Positions 4,322-61,434 of a DNA stretch of 64,000 bases are shown here, in pieces. The position numbers and the translations under genes are program-made. The stretch comes from a bacterium (GTDB lineage Bacteria > Fidelibacterota > Fidelibacteria > Fidelibacterales > Fidelibacteraceae): positions 1,696,001 to 1,760,000 of the forward strand of contig OY781066.1 of NCBI GenBank assembly GCA_963676395.1, given 5' to 3'. Under the pieces are notes generated by a model, which saw only the letters and a program-made list of their open reading frames with translations, did not search any database and had not been told where the DNA came from. Each line of letters starts with the position of its first letter. Within the stretch, counting starts at the first letter, position 1.

Positions 4322-5821
4322 ATGAATAAGTCTAGACAATACATCCTCGTACTTTTTCTGTTATTGCTTTCCGTGCCTCTGTTTGCGCAAGTTGTTCCCT
4401 TTAGTCTGACACTGGGATCGGAAACTAAAAACGTGTTTGCTTCGGATCTTTACGGAGCCCGCTGGGTATCGTTGAACAGTTTTTTTCGTTCATTTGGTGT
4501 GGTTGAAAAAATGGATACCGAAAATTGGGAGCTAAGAACGACTTTATCAGGCAAGACGTACAAGTTTTATGCCAATTCATCCTTTTATCAGGTGAATGGT
4601 AAGTGGTTTCATCTGGCAACCACGGTGGAGCGCTTGGGTAATGGTTTGTACATTCCAGAGAAAGAATTTATTTTGGTACTACATCGGGAGGCCTTTCCCG
4701 AAATGGTTAAGGATATTGTATCCGGCGCTTATATTCTTGCGCCGACCGAATTTTCTATCACTGGGATGAATATTCTTGAAATGAAGAACGGAACCATCGT
4801 TCGTCTCAAAACCTCAAAATTCTTTAGAAAAGATCATTGCCGCGTATGGCAGGGAGCTAATCAGTATCTCTATATTTCTATTTACGATGCTACTGCCGAT
4901 ATGAATGGTTTGGCAAGAACATTTGATCATGGTGTTATACGTGAGATCGTGCCGGTGCAGGCGAAAGAAATGTTGCAATTCAATATGAAATTGCGCATGA
5001 GGATCAAAAGCATGGATTATTATATTGACCAGAATAACGGCGATATTGTAATCTCTTTGCGTCATGATTATCAAAAAAATCAAACCCCCATTAATGAAAC
5101 TCAGATCAAAAACCGCTGGTTGATCGATACCATTGTGATCGATCCCGGTCACGGTGGTCGAAAATCTCCCGGTGCCATCGGCCCGGATGGTACTTTGGAA
5201 AAAACCATTGCTTTGGATGTTTCTCGACGTCTTGGTTCAATGCTGGAGGATAAATTGGGTGTTAAGGTTATTTACACACGTGAAAACGATGTGTTTATTC
5301 CTCTTTATCAACGTCCAAAGATCGCCAATGAAGCGGGTGGAAAATTGTTTATATCCATTCACTGTAATTCTTCGACTTCATCTTCTCCCTACGGTACCGA
5401 AACCTATATTTTAGCACCAAAAAGCACAGAAAAATCCATTGAAATCGCGGCACGCGAAAACAAGGTGATCGAGCTTGAGGAAGATAGAGAACGATATGAA
5501 AAAATGCTGAGTTCTGAACAGTATATTCTTTCTACTATGGCTCAGTCTGTATATATGAAAGAAAGTGAGATGCTGGCGCAATCGATCGAAACAAAGTTTA
5601 AAGGACGTTTGGGTGCAAAAAGTCGTGGTGTTAAACAGGCTTCGTTTATTGTTTTGATAGGTCCGGCAATGCCTGCAGTGTTAACAGAGATCGGATTTAT
5701 TTCTAACTGGCGTGAATTGAGTAATCTTAAAAAAGATTCCTATCGCCAGGAAGTGGCATATTCCTTGTATCAAGCGATAAGAGATTTTAAGAATAATTTC
5801 GAGAAAGAAATAAAAGAGTAA
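4322..5821 (+). CDS. N-acetylmuramoyl-L-alanine amidase (Amidase_3)
   Basis: IDPGHGG, EK...L, FISIHCN, AVLTEIGFISN motifs; signal peptide. Confidence 0.93.
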   Translation: MNKSRQYILVLFLLLLSVPLFAQVVPFSLTLGSETKNVFASDLYGARWVSLNSFFRSFGVVEKMDTENWELRTTLSGKTYKFYANSSFYQVNGKWFHLATTVERLGNGLYIPEKEFILVLHREAFPEMVKDIVSGAYILAPTEFSITGMNILEMKNGTIVRLKTSKFFRKDHCRVWQGANQYLYISIYDATADMNGLARTFDHGVIREIVPVQAKEMLQFNMKLRMRIKSMDYYIDQNNGDIVISLRHDYQKNQTPINETQIKNRWLIDTIVIDPGHGGRKSPGAIGPDGTLEKTIALDVSRRLGSMLEDKLGVKVIYTRENDVFIPLYQRPKIANEAGGKLFISIHCNSSTSSSPYGTETYILAPKSTEKSIEIAARENKVIELEEDRERYEKMLSSEQYILSTMAQSVYMKESEMLAQSIETKFKGRLGAKSRGVKQASFIVLIGPAMPAVLTEIGFISNWRELSNLKKDSYRQEVAYSLYQAIRDFKNNFEKEIKE

Positions 5822-5823
5822 GC

Positions 5824-5851
5824 AAACAGCGTACAGCTGATAGTAGGCAGC
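5824..5851 (+). repeat. Degenerate heptamer array upstream of four helix bundle gene
   Basis: AAACAGC GTACAGC TGATAGT AGGCAGC; the NNNCAGC units are complementary to the downstream GCTGATA units. Confidence 0.6.
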
Positions 5852-5875
5852 AAATGCAAGTCATGGGGGTGACGG

Positions 5876-6235
5876 ATGCGTGATTTTAAGAAATATGATA
5901 TTTGGCATAAAAGTCATAATTTTGCAATGAAAGTATATTGTGAAACAAAGCTTTTTCCTAAAGATGAGACCTATGGATTAAGGAGCCAATTAAGAAGGGC
6001 GGCAACATCAATACCTACTAATATTGTAGAAGGTGCCGGTCGAGATGGCGACAAGCAGTTTGCACGATTTGTCGATATCGCTATGGCATCGGCATGTGAA
6101 TGCGAGTATTTACTTATATTGATACAAGAGTTAAACTATATTTCTGATAAAAATTATAGAGACCTTGAAAAGAAAGTCGTTGAAATCAAGAAAATGCTTG
6201 CAACTTTATATAAAAGATTGAAACTTGATAGCTGA
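5876..6235 (+). CDS. Four helix bundle protein (TIGR02436 / 23S rRNA IVP family)
   Basis: W.KSH...VY..T..FP..E.YGL.SQLRRAA.SIP.NI.EG..R and A..SA.E..Y signature. Confidence 0.95.
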   Translation: MRDFKKYDIWHKSHNFAMKVYCETKLFPKDETYGLRSQLRRAATSIPTNIVEGAGRDGDKQFARFVDIAMASACECEYLLILIQELNYISDKNYRDLEKKVVEIKKMLATLYKRLKLDS

Positions 6236-6326
6236 TAGCTGATAGCTGATAGCTGATAGCTGATAGCTGATAGCTGATAGCTGATAGCTGATAGCTGATA
6301 GCTGATAGCTGATAGCTGATAGCTGA
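6226..6326 (+). repeat. Perfect heptamer tandem repeat (TGATAGC)x14 + TGA
   Basis: Counted directly; supplies the stop codon of the four helix bundle gene. Confidence 0.98.
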
Positions 6327-6354
6327 CATAAACATAACCCGAAAGTATACTACA

Positions 6355-7179
6355 ATGTCCAAAGGTAAAATTGGCATCTTCGATAGCGGTTTAGGCGGCC
6401 TCACTGTCTATAAAGAGATCAGGAAATTGCTTCCCGATTACGATTATCTGTATCTTGGAGATTCTGCCAGAACGCCCTATGGTACTCGCTCTTTTGAAAC
6501 CATTTATCATTACACTCAGCAGGGTGTTGAAAAACTTTGGGATTTGGGTTGTCCACTCATTATTCTAGCTTGTAACACGGCGTCCGCGAAAGCATTGCGC
6601 AGTATTCAGCAGAAAGATCTCGTCGAAAAATATCCCGATCGTCGGGTTCTCGGTGTGATCCGTCCTTCGGTGGAGGTGGTGGGGGAGGCATCTAAAACGC
6701 GAAAAATAGGACTTTTTGGCACCACTGGAACCGTGAGATCGGAATCCTATAAAATGGAATTTGATAAACTATTTCCTGACCTTGAACTTTTCCAGGAAGC
6801 TTGTCCCATGTGGGTACCGCTGGTTGAGAATAATGAGATCGATACGCCGGCTGCAGATTATTTTGTGAAACGACATGTGGAGCATCTTTTAGGCAAGAAT
6901 GCTGATATCGATACGATCATTCTGGCTTGTACGCATTATCCCATGTTGGTTGACAAAATCAAACAATATTTGCCCGACGGAATTCGCGTGATGGATCAAG
7001 GTCCGCTGGTTGCCGATAAATTGGCAGATTATTTGCAACGCCATCCTGAGATAGAAAGCCGGTGTGCCAAGAACGGCAAAGAAGAGTTTTATACTACCGG
7101 TTCAACGGAATTGTTTAAGAAGAATGCTTCGATGTTTTTCGGTAAGAAGATTTTGGCGGGACACATAGAATTAAAATGA
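6355..7179 (+). CDS. murI: Glutamate racemase
   Basis: FDSGLGGLTV, PYG, ACNTAS and LACTHYP catalytic motifs. Confidence 0.96.
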   Translation: MSKGKIGIFDSGLGGLTVYKEIRKLLPDYDYLYLGDSARTPYGTRSFETIYHYTQQGVEKLWDLGCPLIILACNTASAKALRSIQQKDLVEKYPDRRVLGVIRPSVEVVGEASKTRKIGLFGTTGTVRSESYKMEFDKLFPDLELFQEACPMWVPLVENNEIDTPAADYFVKRHVEHLLGKNADIDTIILACTHYPMLVDKIKQYLPDGIRVMDQGPLVADKLADYLQRHPEIESRCAKNGKEEFYTTGSTELFKKNASMFFGKKILAGHIELK

Positions 7180-7227: not shown

Positions 7228-8496
7228 ATGCAAGATTACCTCTCCGATTTATACAAAAAACTCTCCGGCAAAATGAAGCTGGGGCGACAACGGGCCGAAA
7301 TGCTCATGCGGGAGCTGGGGCATCCGGAAAAAGCTTTTCCTTCGATACATATTGCCGGGACTAATGGCAAAGGCACTGTGACTACGGTTGCGGCTGCTAT
7401 TTTACAGCAATTGGGATATAAAACCGGCAAATTCACATCACCGCATTTAATGCGTTTTAATGAGCGGATCTCTGTTGCCGGCAAAGAGATCAACGATAAC
7501 TATATCAAATTGTTTTTAGCAAATCATGATGACTTGTTAGAGAAAAGCGAGGCCTCCTTCTTTGAGGTTACCACCGCTTTGGGCTTCCAATATTTTAAAG
7601 ATCAAGCCGTGGATATCGCGGTGGTGGAAACGGGTCTGGGCGGTCGCCTGGATGCGACCTCGGTATTGACTCCCGATGTTTCCGTGATCACGACCATTGG
7701 CTATGACCATACCGCCATTCTTGGTGAAACACTTCCCGAGATCGCAGCCGAAAAAGCCGGGATCATTAAAGAGGGGAAACCCGTGCTGACCTTGCCGCAA
7801 AGTGAAAAGGTGCTGAATGTTTTTCGGGAAAAGACCGATCTGCTGAGTATCGTAGATCCTAAAGATCTCTTTGCCGATGTAAAACAAACACCTCAAGGGA
7901 TGCGTTTTAATTATCTACCGGAAAGTAGAGAATTGCTGTTTCCGATATGCGGGGAGCATTTGCTGGGAAATATCGGACTGGCTATTGCGGCCGTTGAATG
8001 CTTTCTTGGAAAAAAACTCAAAGCGGATGATTTGCAAAAGGCATTTGATATACTTAGTTGGAAAGGTCGTTTTGAACACCTGTCTTTCGATCCGCCGGTG
8101 ATCTATGATGTAGCACATAATTTTCAGGGTGTGGCGGCTTTTTGTAAGACGGCTATGTTGGTGTATCCCGATAGGGGTTTTATTGCCGTAATGGGACTAT
8201 TAGACGATAAATCACCGGAGAAAGTGATGCAAGAATTGTCTGTTCTAAACGGCAAGATCATTCTTGCACCCGTCAACTCGCACCGCTCGATGAGTATGGA
8301 AAAACTACAGGCTTTGGCCGAAAATTATCCCGGAGTTAAAACGGCAGACTCCGTGACGCAAGCGTGCGAGCGAGCATACGACAAAATGAAAGAAAACGAT
8401 GTTCTGCTTATCCTTGGCTCGCATTATATAGCGGAAGAAGTCTACGGATTTACGAATAATCGAATGAGTGAACATTCGAATGAAATAATCGATTGA
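7228..8496 (+). CDS. folC: Folylpolyglutamate/dihydrofolate synthase
   Basis: HIAGTNGKG, FTSPHL..FNERI, ETGLGGRLDAT, EKAGIIK, DVAHN, GSHY motifs. Confidence 0.95.
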   Translation: MQDYLSDLYKKLSGKMKLGRQRAEMLMRELGHPEKAFPSIHIAGTNGKGTVTTVAAAILQQLGYKTGKFTSPHLMRFNERISVAGKEINDNYIKLFLANHDDLLEKSEASFFEVTTALGFQYFKDQAVDIAVVETGLGGRLDATSVLTPDVSVITTIGYDHTAILGETLPEIAAEKAGIIKEGKPVLTLPQSEKVLNVFREKTDLLSIVDPKDLFADVKQTPQGMRFNYLPESRELLFPICGEHLLGNIGLAIAAVECFLGKKLKADDLQKAFDILSWKGRFEHLSFDPPVIYDVAHNFQGVAAFCKTAMLVYPDRGFIAVMGLLDDKSPEKVMQELSVLNGKIILAPVNSHRSMSMEKLQALAENYPGVKTADSVTQACERAYDKMKENDVLLILGSHYIAEEVYGFTNNRMSEHSNEIID

Positions 8497-8573
8497 CGAA
8501 TGAGTGAATAAACAGACAGAACAATCGAGTGACGAATGAGTGAGCAATCGAATGCTTGATTAATCGATTGTTC
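8454..8573 (+). repeat. Degenerate 4/8-nt periodic repeat array overlapping the folC 3' end
   Basis: GAAT/GAGT/GAAC units; TGACGAATGAGTGA at 8494-8507 and 8530-8543; inverted pair GAACAATCGA (8519-8528) / TCGATTGTTC (8564-8573). Confidence 0.8.
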
Positions 8574-60893: not shown

Positions 60894-60915
60894 GTAGATT
60901 TCTCCTTAATTGTTA

Positions 60916-60933
60916 AGATTAAGATTAAGTAGA
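60916..60933. repeat. Left arm of 18-bp perfect inverted repeat (AAGATT-type hexamers)
   Basis: AGATTAAGATTAAGTAGA; exact reverse complement of 61406-61423. Confidence 0.9.
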
Positions 60934-60971
60934 AATGAGATTTTAGTTTTAAGTTTGTTTTTTCGCATGAA

Positions 60972-61352
60972 TTATACAGAATAATTTTTAAGTGTTTTTA
61001 TAATTTTATTTAGACTATGAACAACCTTTTGTATTTTAGATTCATAGTTGTTTACTGTTTCTTTTGTAAAATATTTTACTTTATTTCCGTATATCAAGTG
61101 ACTTTGCAGTTCACAAGCGGAACCTCTACTGTATCTGTAGAAATTCAACTTATCTTTTAGATGTTCTCTTCCAAAAGCTTCGGCGATATTTGCTGATATG
61201 CTATTGGCACTTCTTCTCATTTGAGAAGCAAGTGCATAATCCTCGACTTTTGGTAGCTTTTCAGTTAAATTATATATCTCAACGGATATATCAATTGATT
61301 CTTGCCATACAGGAAAATCCTTAAAGGATTTATATCCTTTGATTTGAGTCAT
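60972..61352 (-). CDS. Four helix bundle protein (TIGR02436 / 23S rRNA IVP family)
   Basis: SFKD..VWQ.S...IY..T..LP..E.Y.L.SQMRRSA.SI.ANIAE..GR, RGSA.ELQS.L. Confidence 0.95.
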   Translation of the reverse strand: MTQIKGYKSFKDFPVWQESIDISVEIYNLTEKLPKVEDYALASQMRRSANSISANIAEAFGREHLKDKLNFYRYSRGSACELQSHLIYGNKVKYFTKETVNNYESKIQKVVHSLNKIIKTLKNYSV

Positions 61353-61405
61353 AACGTCCCCCGCTATTTTATCAAATTATACCAAACTTAATCTTATTAC
61401 TTAAA

Positions 61406-61423
61406 TCTACTTAATCTTAATCT
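61406..61423. repeat. Right arm of 18-bp perfect inverted repeat
   Basis: TCTACTTAATCTTAATCT; imperfect complementarity continues inward to about 61383/60957. Confidence 0.9.
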
Positions 61424-61434
61424 CGACAATCAAT

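Follow-up and report, generated by a model that had tools for sequence, protein, structure and literature searches.

The closest described counterpart of the element treated here is the intervening sequence (IVS) in helix 45 of the 23S ribosomal RNA (rRNA) of Coxiella burnetii. This IVS carries an open reading frame (ORF) for an S23p protein preceded by 2–3 tandem GACAGAT heptamers whose number varies between strains; its termini form a stem of 28 bp, and RNase III cuts it at the first repeat. ORF-bearing 23S IVSs are also mentioned there from Leptospira, Xanthomonas and Brucella (PMC4990558). A mobile-element origin has been proposed for IVSs and left unexplained. We have found a 533-nt cassette carrying a gene of the same family between two protein genes, one for an N-acetylmuramoyl-L-alanine amidase and murI, in a 64,000-nt stretch of a Fidelibacteraceae genome (GCA_963676395.1, contig OY781066.1, positions 1,696,001–1,760,000 of the forward strand). 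This whole stretch is called the window here, positions are counted from its first letter, its genome is referred to as G000 and the genomes of relatives have other G numbers. As in the 23S rRNA IVS, a PF05635 ORF is enclosed by repeats, heptamers lie directly 5′ of it and the insertion is tolerated by the host transcript. The window cassette differs in lying between protein genes, in its direct arms without a terminal stem and in its 3′ arm of 14 units, and its ORF is intact, conserved and preceded by a strong G-run, whereas the Coxiella ORF is decaying and probably untranslated. An rRNA IVS proper was considered and set aside, the cassette standing between the amidase gene and murI and no Rfam RNA family being found at the locus. 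By analogy, it would work most like an IVS-type element that has moved into an operon junction. Such a class of cassettes outside rRNA was not found described. The literature search, which left out subscription journals and supplements, yielded no paper linking the PF05635 family to heptamer repeats outside the Coxiella IVS, no TGATAGC dimer on either strand, and PF05635 itself only in a paper on diversity-generating retroelements (DGRs).

Tandem heptamers are known from several other settings. The TAACTGA repeats of Beggiatoaceae, Cyanobacteria and Bacteroidetes are intergenic and their mechanism is not known; the main text of the paper describing them mentions no four-helix-bundle, S23 or IVS genes (PMC4679880). 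Like the repeats here, these and the short tandemly repeated repetitive (STRR) sequences hold stop codons in one orientation, lie near start codons and are missing at the same site in relatives, whereas the repeats in our case flank and overlap members of a specific gene family. We take the cyanobacterial STRR sequences to be heptanucleotide repeats of the same kind. The (ATCTTTC)n repeats in the 5′ untranslated region of hmw1A in Haemophilus influenzae are transcribed, form a long hairpin and are cut by RNase III, and their length matters (PMC12721329). There, in contrast to the present locus, the repeats pair with a G-rich partner, the gene encodes a surface adhesin and no four-helix-bundle gene takes part.

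From the stop codon of the amidase gene to the start of murI there are 533 nt (5822–6354), all of them taken up by the cassette, whose parts read in the same direction as the genes around it. To the left is the amidase gene (4322–5821, + strand, 499 residues, PF01520 with E 2.2e-50) and to the right is murI, encoding glutamate racemase (6355–7179, + strand, 274 residues, identified by PF01177 and synteny). A 5′ arm of five degenerate heptamers in a single register (5817–5851, +; AGTAAGC, AAACAGC, GTACAGC, TGATAGT, AGGCAGC) begins inside the amidase gene, its first unit overlapping the stop codon (5819–5821). The leader GTCATGGGGGTGACG (5860–5875, +), which abuts the ATG, contains a Shine–Dalgarno-like G-run within a small GTCA/TGAC inverted repeat. 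It is followed by the gene for a four-helix-bundle protein of 119 residues (5876–6235, +) and by the expanded 3′ arm, a perfect tandem array of 14.4 TGATAGC units (6226–6326, +; Tandem Repeats Finder, TRF: period 7, 100% matches, score 202). The ORF ends in CTT GAT AGC TGA (Leu, Asp, Ser, stop), so that the first base of the array is base three of the Leu codon, and the stop codon comes from the second unit. A spacer of 28 nt (6327–6354, +), unpaired in predicted folds, separates the array from murI. The TRF result and the reading of the ORF bear out the first-pass annotation, made from the letters alone, which had the array starting in the last codons, supplying the stop and ending 28 nt before the murI ATG at 6355. 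It had also reported stops in all three frames on the sense strand and none on the antisense strand; the counts are indeed 10, 10 and 9 on the + strand and 0, 0 and 0 on the − strand, a trivial outcome since the unit holds TGA and TAG and the period is not divisible by 3. We give an even chance to the reading that this is an IVS-type cassette at the stop/start junction of two protein genes, with a 3′ arm expanded by slippage, carried as a tolerated passenger.

The junction itself can be followed through the phylum. Within it, 28 relatives retain the order amidase–murI–folC, and in every relative whose junction is visible the amidase gene neighbours murI. In the comparisons with these 28 a tblastn match to the window protein between amidase and murI was obtained in G000 only. 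The two genes are 7–17 nt apart in seven genomes of the same genus, and in three genomes a spacer of 57–68 nt holds a plain stem–loop. Four further genomes (G018, G002, G015 and G003) have at this position arrays or hairpins built from other units, with no gene: nine units of nnnCAGC/nnAAAGC in G018, about ten of (A/G)AACGAT followed by ATCGACA-type units in G002. In the murI tree, built from a single gene (274 columns) and with several open forks, the empty sites branch off at the base, and those that are filled or littered fall together in a single derived clade. The 533-nt cassette is an insertion, and an old one. Recombination between direct arms would remove the gene and yield a lone array of the kind seen in G018.

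Evidence for its age and for constraint on its parts comes from G004, a different species with an orthologous cassette at the same amidase|murI junction. There the 5′ arm reads AAATAGC, TAACAGC, CGATAGC, TGATAGC, CAATAGC, again with the amidase stop inside the first unit, and is followed by the leader, an ORF of 119 codons and TGATAGC repeats running to the end of the contig; a second contig starts with the last 31 nt of the gene (one difference), continues with 10 units and then enters murI. The ORFs of G000 and G004 agree at 89 of 119 residues (75%) and 255 of 357 nt. Nonsynonymous divergence is 0.19 for the cassette protein and 0.23 for murI, and synonymous divergence (dS) is saturated, the Nei–Gojobori estimate failing for both genes. 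Despite these saturated synonymous sites, the leader GTCATGGGGGTGACG is identical at 15 of 15 bases, and both genomes have the identical TGATAGC unit, perfect arrays and a five-unit 5′ arm. The protein and the non-coding parts (unit, arm and leader) are thus under constraint. Our reading is that selection, or a constrained homogenisation, acts on the repeat sequence and the leader, since after a recent transfer the ORF, too, would be almost the same in both genomes. An orthologous pair that keeps unit, arm and 15-nt leader offers a handle for bench work on selection on the repeat sequence itself; the filled and empty sites within one genus and the unit that is self-complementary in the sense strand only are others.

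The same comparison bears on the array as a product of assembly. Short-read graphs do break at the array: contigs of all four public runs stop there, and in the Logan contigs of a public run breaks fall at both edges. The array nevertheless sits in a one-contig assembly of 2.34 Mb, the independent assembly G004 has the same unit at the same site, with at least 15 units to its contig end and 10 on the second contig, and many similar arrays exist elsewhere. Short array-only Logan contigs have depths of 230–250 against 11–16 for the flanks, a ratio about as expected from two arrays of 14.4 and 9.4 units, although such depths are not copy numbers and do not fix the exact number of units. An artefact of assembly is extremely improbable.

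The 119-residue protein is a member of PF05635 (130.8 bits, cut-off 33.8, E 2.8e-38) and of TIGR02436, “four helix bundle protein” (128.7 bits, cut-off 24), that is, the 23S rRNA-intervening sequence protein or S23p family with an Avd-like fold. An AlphaFold model from 29 sequences has four helices and a mean predicted local distance difference test score (pLDDT) of 95.9. Foldseek matched it to 2gsc with a template-modelling (TM) score of 0.92 and a root-mean-square deviation of 1.5, and to 2rld with a TM score of 0.82. Both of these structure entries have five chains, and the family protein of Xanthomonas is a toroidal homopentamer according to the Coxiella IVS paper (PMC4990558), in agreement with the oligomeric ring assumed by the first-pass annotation. 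By homology, the window protein would be pentameric as well. The model also resembles the Avd chains of the DGR ribonucleoprotein and of 4dwl (TM 0.73–0.77, identity 9–11%). Avd of DGRs (4dwl; 8ub7–8ube) shares with it the four-helix bundle and a pentameric family, and has a role in a nucleic-acid complex; it differs in the low identity, in an Avd model that stays below its cut-off and in the reverse transcriptase, which was not found in our genome. The identification as a DGR accessory protein was accordingly rejected (NF033474 27.1 bits, cut-off 80; PF22296 25.2 bits, cut-off 40), and a DGR role is excluded because no reverse transcriptase gene was found, PF00078 having no match in the 95%-complete genome. 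PADLOC assigned neither of the two window paralogues to a defence family. PF05635 has 10 matches in G000 and 10 to more than 17 copies per genome in the genus, and a single scan confirmed at least 413 relatives of the window protein.

The second paralogue of the window (60972–61352, − strand, 126 residues), already pointed out as a cassette of the same architecture, is real: its protein is 33% identical to the first (38 of 115 positions), it has repeat flanks of its own and, like the first, a G-run before its ATG. On its sense strand the 5′ arm consists of GATTAAG-type units (61386–61425, −) and the 3′ arm of CTTAATC-type units (60907–60957, −; TRF TTAAGA × 2.8), and the two are inverted with respect to each other (z 8.9–11.6). 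The arms of the first cassette behave differently. The upstream units had been described as able to pair with the array; five such units do exist in one 7-nt register (5817–5851), but they are degenerate direct copies of the array unit rather than a complementary arm. Watson–Crick complementarity between 5′-arm units and array is 4/7 per unit, the 3′ flank, once reverse-complemented, aligns locally with the 5′ flank no better than shuffles do (z 0.2), and in the minimum-energy fold of 5800–6380 the array pairs with itself and leaves the upstream units unused. In the G004 orthologue the arms are direct with z 14.3 and inverted with z 1.7. Complementary termini that form a long stem, as expected of an IVS, are thus lacking here and in the orthologue and are present at 61 kb, while heptamer repeats of one family stand on both sides of the gene at a junction that is empty in relatives. 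The window cassette is a direct-arm variant with an expanded 3′ arm.

For the class as a whole we compared the flanks of 33 cassettes from four genomes of the genus with shuffled sequences. The 5′ and 3′ flanks are inverted complements well above shuffles in 19–20 of the 33, each with its own unit, and arms are significantly direct in six, including the G004 orthologue; the arms of the window locus reach significance in neither test. Read in the sense orientation, most G000 paralogues have on either side short-unit repeats that are proper to each. Among lags of 5–9 the best is 7 in 24 of 33 3′ arms and 18 of 34 5′ arms, with 8 in second place. Arm sizes cluster at about 3.5–6 units, with a tail at 7–18 where one arm has expanded, and it is often the case that one arm has 10–18. 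Since this tail follows from the expansion of single arms, the 14-unit array is an ordinary expanded arm. The sequence GGGGAC stands before most four-helix-bundle paralogues but before no more than 0.2% of the 1692 long ORFs in the genome, and the G-run leader belongs to the cassette. The inverted-arm cassettes have in addition a polarity relative to the gene (counted in L002, L003 and L151–L181 from G000, G002, G004, G018 and G033, with some 15 different families of units represented): in 19 of 19, G outnumbers C on the sense strand of the 5′ arm. Purines predominate in 18 of these 5′ arms, and 15 exceed their 3′ arm in stop triplets, with three ties. The window cassette breaks this rule, its 3′ array being the arm with more G than C and the many stops.

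Folding predictions distinguish the two strands of the array. The sense RNA of array and short flanks folds at −50.8 kcal/mol (z −6.5), a value reached by none of 200 shuffles, and antisense array RNA does no better than its shuffles (z −0.3). In the prediction, the quasi-palindromic unit lets (UGAUAGC)n form a duplex with itself by way of AGCU cores and two G·U pairs, leaving one A·A mismatch per unit, and the same hairpin recurs in a fold of 581 nt. A gene for RNase III is present in the genome. No terminator-like site was found at the array, which has no U-run and is followed by GACATAAACATAACCC, and an intrinsic terminator was therefore dismissed. A promoter scan gave nine matches against 10.8 expected; one promoter-like match of 10/12 at 6323–6351 uses the end of the array and is not conserved in G004.

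On this basis the tolerated-passenger reading can be spelled out. The cassette would consist of a five-heptamer 5′ arm, a leader with a G-run, an S23p/Avd-like gene and a 3′ arm of the same repeat family, which replication slippage would have expanded to 14 perfect TGATAGC units. It would be transcribed together with amidase, murI and folC, and the sense repeat RNA would form a hairpin of about 45 bp from AGCU cores and G·U pairs. This predicted hairpin could serve as a processing or stability element of the RNase III type, as in rRNA IVSs, and such processing would keep the passenger from harming the expression of the essential murI. The cassette would then be mainly a tolerated, semi-selfish passenger and the exact length of its array of little consequence. 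An RNase III-type processing hairpin appears the most economical reading because of the precedents in the Coxiella IVS and in hmw of H. influenzae.

Several observations weigh against this account. The inverted arms of the IVS model are missing from the window cassette (z 0.2), the hairpin is a predicted one with an A·A mismatch every 7 nt, and we know of no mechanism of mobility. The sister of G000 in the murI tree (G011/G006) has no cassette, and several losses or an old transfer are therefore needed. Two general tests for RNA-level selection, on the strand of the duplex and on G·U mismatches, gave no signal either way: the sense arm duplex is the more stable in 33 of 74 loci and the antisense in 41, and G·U-type mismatches lean to the sense strand by 38 to 31 over 20 cassettes. 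Cognate arms pair better than the mean of non-cognate arms in only 42 of the 74 loci. Finally, the strong conservation of the exact unit over saturated dS points to sequence-specific recognition rather than to structure alone.

The array could instead be a contingency locus, in which its length, varying within a population, sets the expression of murI and folC in the manner of a phase switch or rheostat; the first-pass annotation had thought along these lines. Perfect arrays of 14 units are prone to slippage and the copy number does vary by assembly (14.4 in G000, at least 15 and 10 on the two G004 contigs). The heptamer rheostat of H. influenzae with RNase III (PMC12721329) and the strain-variable heptamers of the Coxiella IVS (PMC4990558) are precedents. 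Yet murI has a housekeeping role, a repeat in front of it is missing from most relatives, and no promoter- or terminator-like site above chance occurs at the array, and we consider a contingency locus very unlikely.

Whether the repeat follows the protein was examined in the 80 closest relatives of the window protein (47–75% identity; from Neomarinimicrobiota-titled records and, for the most part, from Flavobacteriia). They occupy about seven kinds of insertion site, with some 62 of them between groES and groEL. Of 79 cassettes at or above 45% identity, a set in which numerous groES|groEL inserts are orthologous and three or four loci occur twice, 64 have three AGC triplets at 7-nt spacing in a flank, against 1 of 30 more distant paralogues and about none expected from shuffles. 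In the groES|groEL set of 62, both arms are of the type nnTAAGC or nTAAAGC on the sense strand, the core being conserved and the first positions variable. The longest run of xxxxxGC units is exactly five on the 5′ side in 32 of 62 and on the 3′ side in 42 of 62, and rarely more; the xxxxxGC register was chosen by the GC feature that was then counted, and the 62 loci are probably one old insertion. In the Flavobacteriia cassettes (L015–L090) the five-heptamer arms fill the spacers and abut both start codons, and since these bacteria are culturable the groES|groEL cassettes form a convenient experimental system. At another site the pattern is different. Three orthologous cassettes upstream of purC, whose proteins are 59–64% identical to the window protein, carry TGATAGC-type units, an 8-mer of the CTGAGAAG type and TTGGCTT-type units, respectively, and the unit is therefore not fixed by the protein clade. 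The proposal that each paralogue travels with its own cognate repeat stands in so far as 19–20 of 33 cassettes have matching flanks with units of their own, and is weakened in that the purC-site orthologues differ in unit. Three of 22 genomes within the genus (G000, G004 and G009) contain (TGATAGC)x3, and homologues of at least 59% identity are present in G000, G004, G033 and G014; (AGTAAAC)x3 occurs in 6 of 22, and homologues of the matching paralogue nowhere exceed 58%. The closest paralogue of the window protein (64%; L012, the same as G004:C145 and L153) lies upstream of a purC-like gene and has an in-frame TAA in the region of the conserved NIAEG motif, so that the gene is probably a pseudogene. 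Its 5′ arm has at least 10 copies of a 14-mer made of CTATCAG and CAGTCAG, the complement of TGATAGC-type units, and its 3′ arm has five TGATAGC-like units.

These numbers bear on the suggestion, also made by the first-pass annotation, that the repeat is the ligand of the ring protein. TRAP is a ring oligomer in which each subunit takes one regularly spaced short RNA motif; it is a β-sheet 11-mer with triplet motifs and its binding is proven. Its fold is unrelated to that of the window protein, and the likeness is one of analogy only. A toroidal pentamer could similarly bind one heptamer of single-stranded RNA (or DNA) per subunit, with the five-unit arms as putative sites; it could then regulate its own gene from the arm near its start, act on murI through the 3′ array and act in trans on arrays of the same unit. 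The five-chain entries 2gsc and 2rld and the toroidal homopentamer described in the Coxiella paper (PMC4990558) are in line with such a reader, as are the Avd pentamers, which by the entry titles have been solved in an RNA–protein complex and superimpose on our model with TM 0.73–0.77. So are the arms of five units at our locus, in G004 and on the 3′ side of L012, and the groES|groEL runs of five with an arm abutting the start codon. A conserved core with variable positions and an identical unit over saturated dS argue for a reading of sequence. Period 7 is preferred in 24 of 33 3′ arms, and the strong arrays of the genome show no other short period; the AGC core (64/79 against 1/30) points the same way. 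On the other side, the purC-site orthologues carry three units, arm sizes in the genus spread over 3–8 units without a sharp peak at five, and the 62 groEL-site loci are probably a single inherited insertion counted in a register chosen by its own GC feature. Moreover, only 1 of 80 TGATAGC arrays adjoins such a gene and only 2 of 10 long-array units recur in resident arms. Binding of the repeat by the pentameric protein is plausible on these grounds, and a TRAP-like reader is possible, if clearly below an even chance.

The relationship between repeats and gene is asymmetric. Among the short-period arrays of G000 with a TRF score of at least 60, 16 of 16 have period 7 and none has period 2–6 or 8–11; there are 17 further TRF rows with period 14 or 21, and the arrays of period 7 and 14 are intergenic. 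Of the about 25 strong arrays of period 7, 14 or 21 in G000, only three lie within 2 kb of a paralogue. A second TGATAGC array, of 9.4 units, stands 67 nt before folE with no four-helix-bundle gene nearby, and at this spot seven of the species compared (G000, G013, G006, G004, G002, G033 and G016) have differing short-unit arrays, mostly of heptamers. Metagenomes contain (TGATAGC)x4 in at least 120 stretches; among 80 loci with flanks, of 33–73% G+C, a single array of four or more units lies within 700 nt of a four-helix-bundle ORF. Heptamer arms thus accompany nearly all genes of the family, but most heptamer arrays have no such gene beside them. Single 7-mers are uninformative for the sharing of units (null 7.6 of 10), but in tests with 10–14-mers 4, 2 and 2 of the 10 distinct units of gene-less long arrays in G000 are shared with the arms of resident paralogues (null means 1.0, 0.2 and 0.03). 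Two of the 10 recur in resident arms as at least two tandem copies (null mean 0.03, P 0.006). The overlap between gene-less units and resident arms is partial and not a rule.

Arrays of this kind might be a generic intergenic filler of fast turnover, produced by a process independent of the gene, the cassette having simply landed in or next to an existing one where the junction was permissive. The about 25 arrays in G000 of which only three are near a paralogue, the gene-less arrays and hairpins at amidase|murI in G018, G002, G015 and G003, the folE site with its different array in almost every species and the one metagenomic array in 80 beside such a gene would all fit, and the direct flanks at our locus are what insertion into an array would give. 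Against such independence, the two arms of nearly every paralogue resemble one another and not the arms of the remaining paralogues, and the core of the unit follows the protein clade across phyla and about seven insertion sites. The array begins inside the ORF and gives its stop both here and in G004, and the arm polarity relative to the gene is fixed in 19 of 19 inverted cassettes. We regard unrelated neighbours as quite unlikely.

A wider proposal would join the two sets of repeats. PF05635 pentamers would read heptamers, one subunit per 7-nt unit and five per arm with a unit proper to each clade, and gene-less arrays (STRR, TAACTGA and TGATAGC among others) would be non-autonomous or left-over products. 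We hold this to be unlikely as it stands. Repetitive extragenic palindromic (REP) sequences and bacterial interspersed mosaic elements, with the REP-associated tyrosine transposases (RAYTs), have many repeat elements without a gene and few gene copies flanked by the same repeats. This parallel is an analogy only, RAYTs being enzymes with a known catalytic motif and none being known in the four-helix-bundle protein. If the proposal were true, gene-bearing cassettes would be the autonomous members of a repeat-plus-protein system, related to the arrays as RAYT to REP or as a transposase to its miniature inverted-repeat transposable elements, and the origin and the 7-nt period of bacterial heptanucleotide repeats would be explained. 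A protein that reads the repeats would represent a new modular principle of nucleic-acid binding (5 × 7 nt). If it does not read them, the cassettes are passengers of a widespread kind that occupy junctions within operons, groES|groEL of Flavobacteriia among them, which matters for annotation and for the understanding of operon expression. In either case the locus links the very large orphan family PF05635/TIGR02436 to unexplained bacterial heptamer repeats, and adds a series of filled, empty and littered states at one site together with an association in which the gene implies the repeats and not the converse.

For arrays between co-directional genes of G000 the stop-rich strand is the sense strand in six cases and the antisense strand in five. 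A strand bias of the metagenomic TGATAGC arrays suggested by crude ORFs (33 ++ and 3 −−) was discarded, as Pfam-verified genes are co-oriented with the array in 30 cases and opposite in 28, for the 150 of 231 candidate ORFs checked, from loci L200–L251; a hand tally of arrays between Pfam-verified co-directional genes gave nine sense and four antisense. Gene-less TGATAGC arrays in L208, L221, L224 and L240 lie at the conserved operon junctions nuoH|nuoI, rpsH|rplF, psaA|psaB and rpsF|rplI, the same kind of site as the cassettes use. In L218, at about 666–693, an antisense (TGATAGC)x4 stands between two ORFs, one resembling the N-terminal and the other the C-terminal half of Pfam BacA (undecaprenyl-diphosphatase), so that it lies inside a gene or splits one.

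The DNA directly before folE differs from the arrays 5′ of it. About 65 nt (ctttggaatatc...gtaaatgtaaatttatggtcgaattgaaaggaa; G000:C1:266439–266505, about 1434–1500 of L184) are conserved in most genomes of the genus, and just 5′ of this segment nearly every species has a different heptamer array. Rfam, searched up to E 0.1, gave no match at the folE locus or at the cassette locus. The conserved segment may be a promoter or leader, or an undescribed RNA element.

Downstream of murI, in the same row of genes as the cassette, is a co-directional folC-type gene of the Mur ligase family (7228–8496, +; PF08245 and PF02875). A repeat tract at 8461–8554 (TRF period 36, 2.6 copies, with 7-nt words of the CGAATGA/GTGAxxx type) begins within its last codons and extends beyond its stop. 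Elsewhere in G000, TRF reports a repeat whose 25-nt unit includes AACCGAGTCGGTT at 820153–820215 and again at 820838–820899. An ORF of 186 codons at G000:C1:1871131–1871688 (−), a candidate transposase gene, has GGGGGAC before its start and contains the motif PNHYHYLI, which is typical of Y1 transposases of the IS200/RAYT type.

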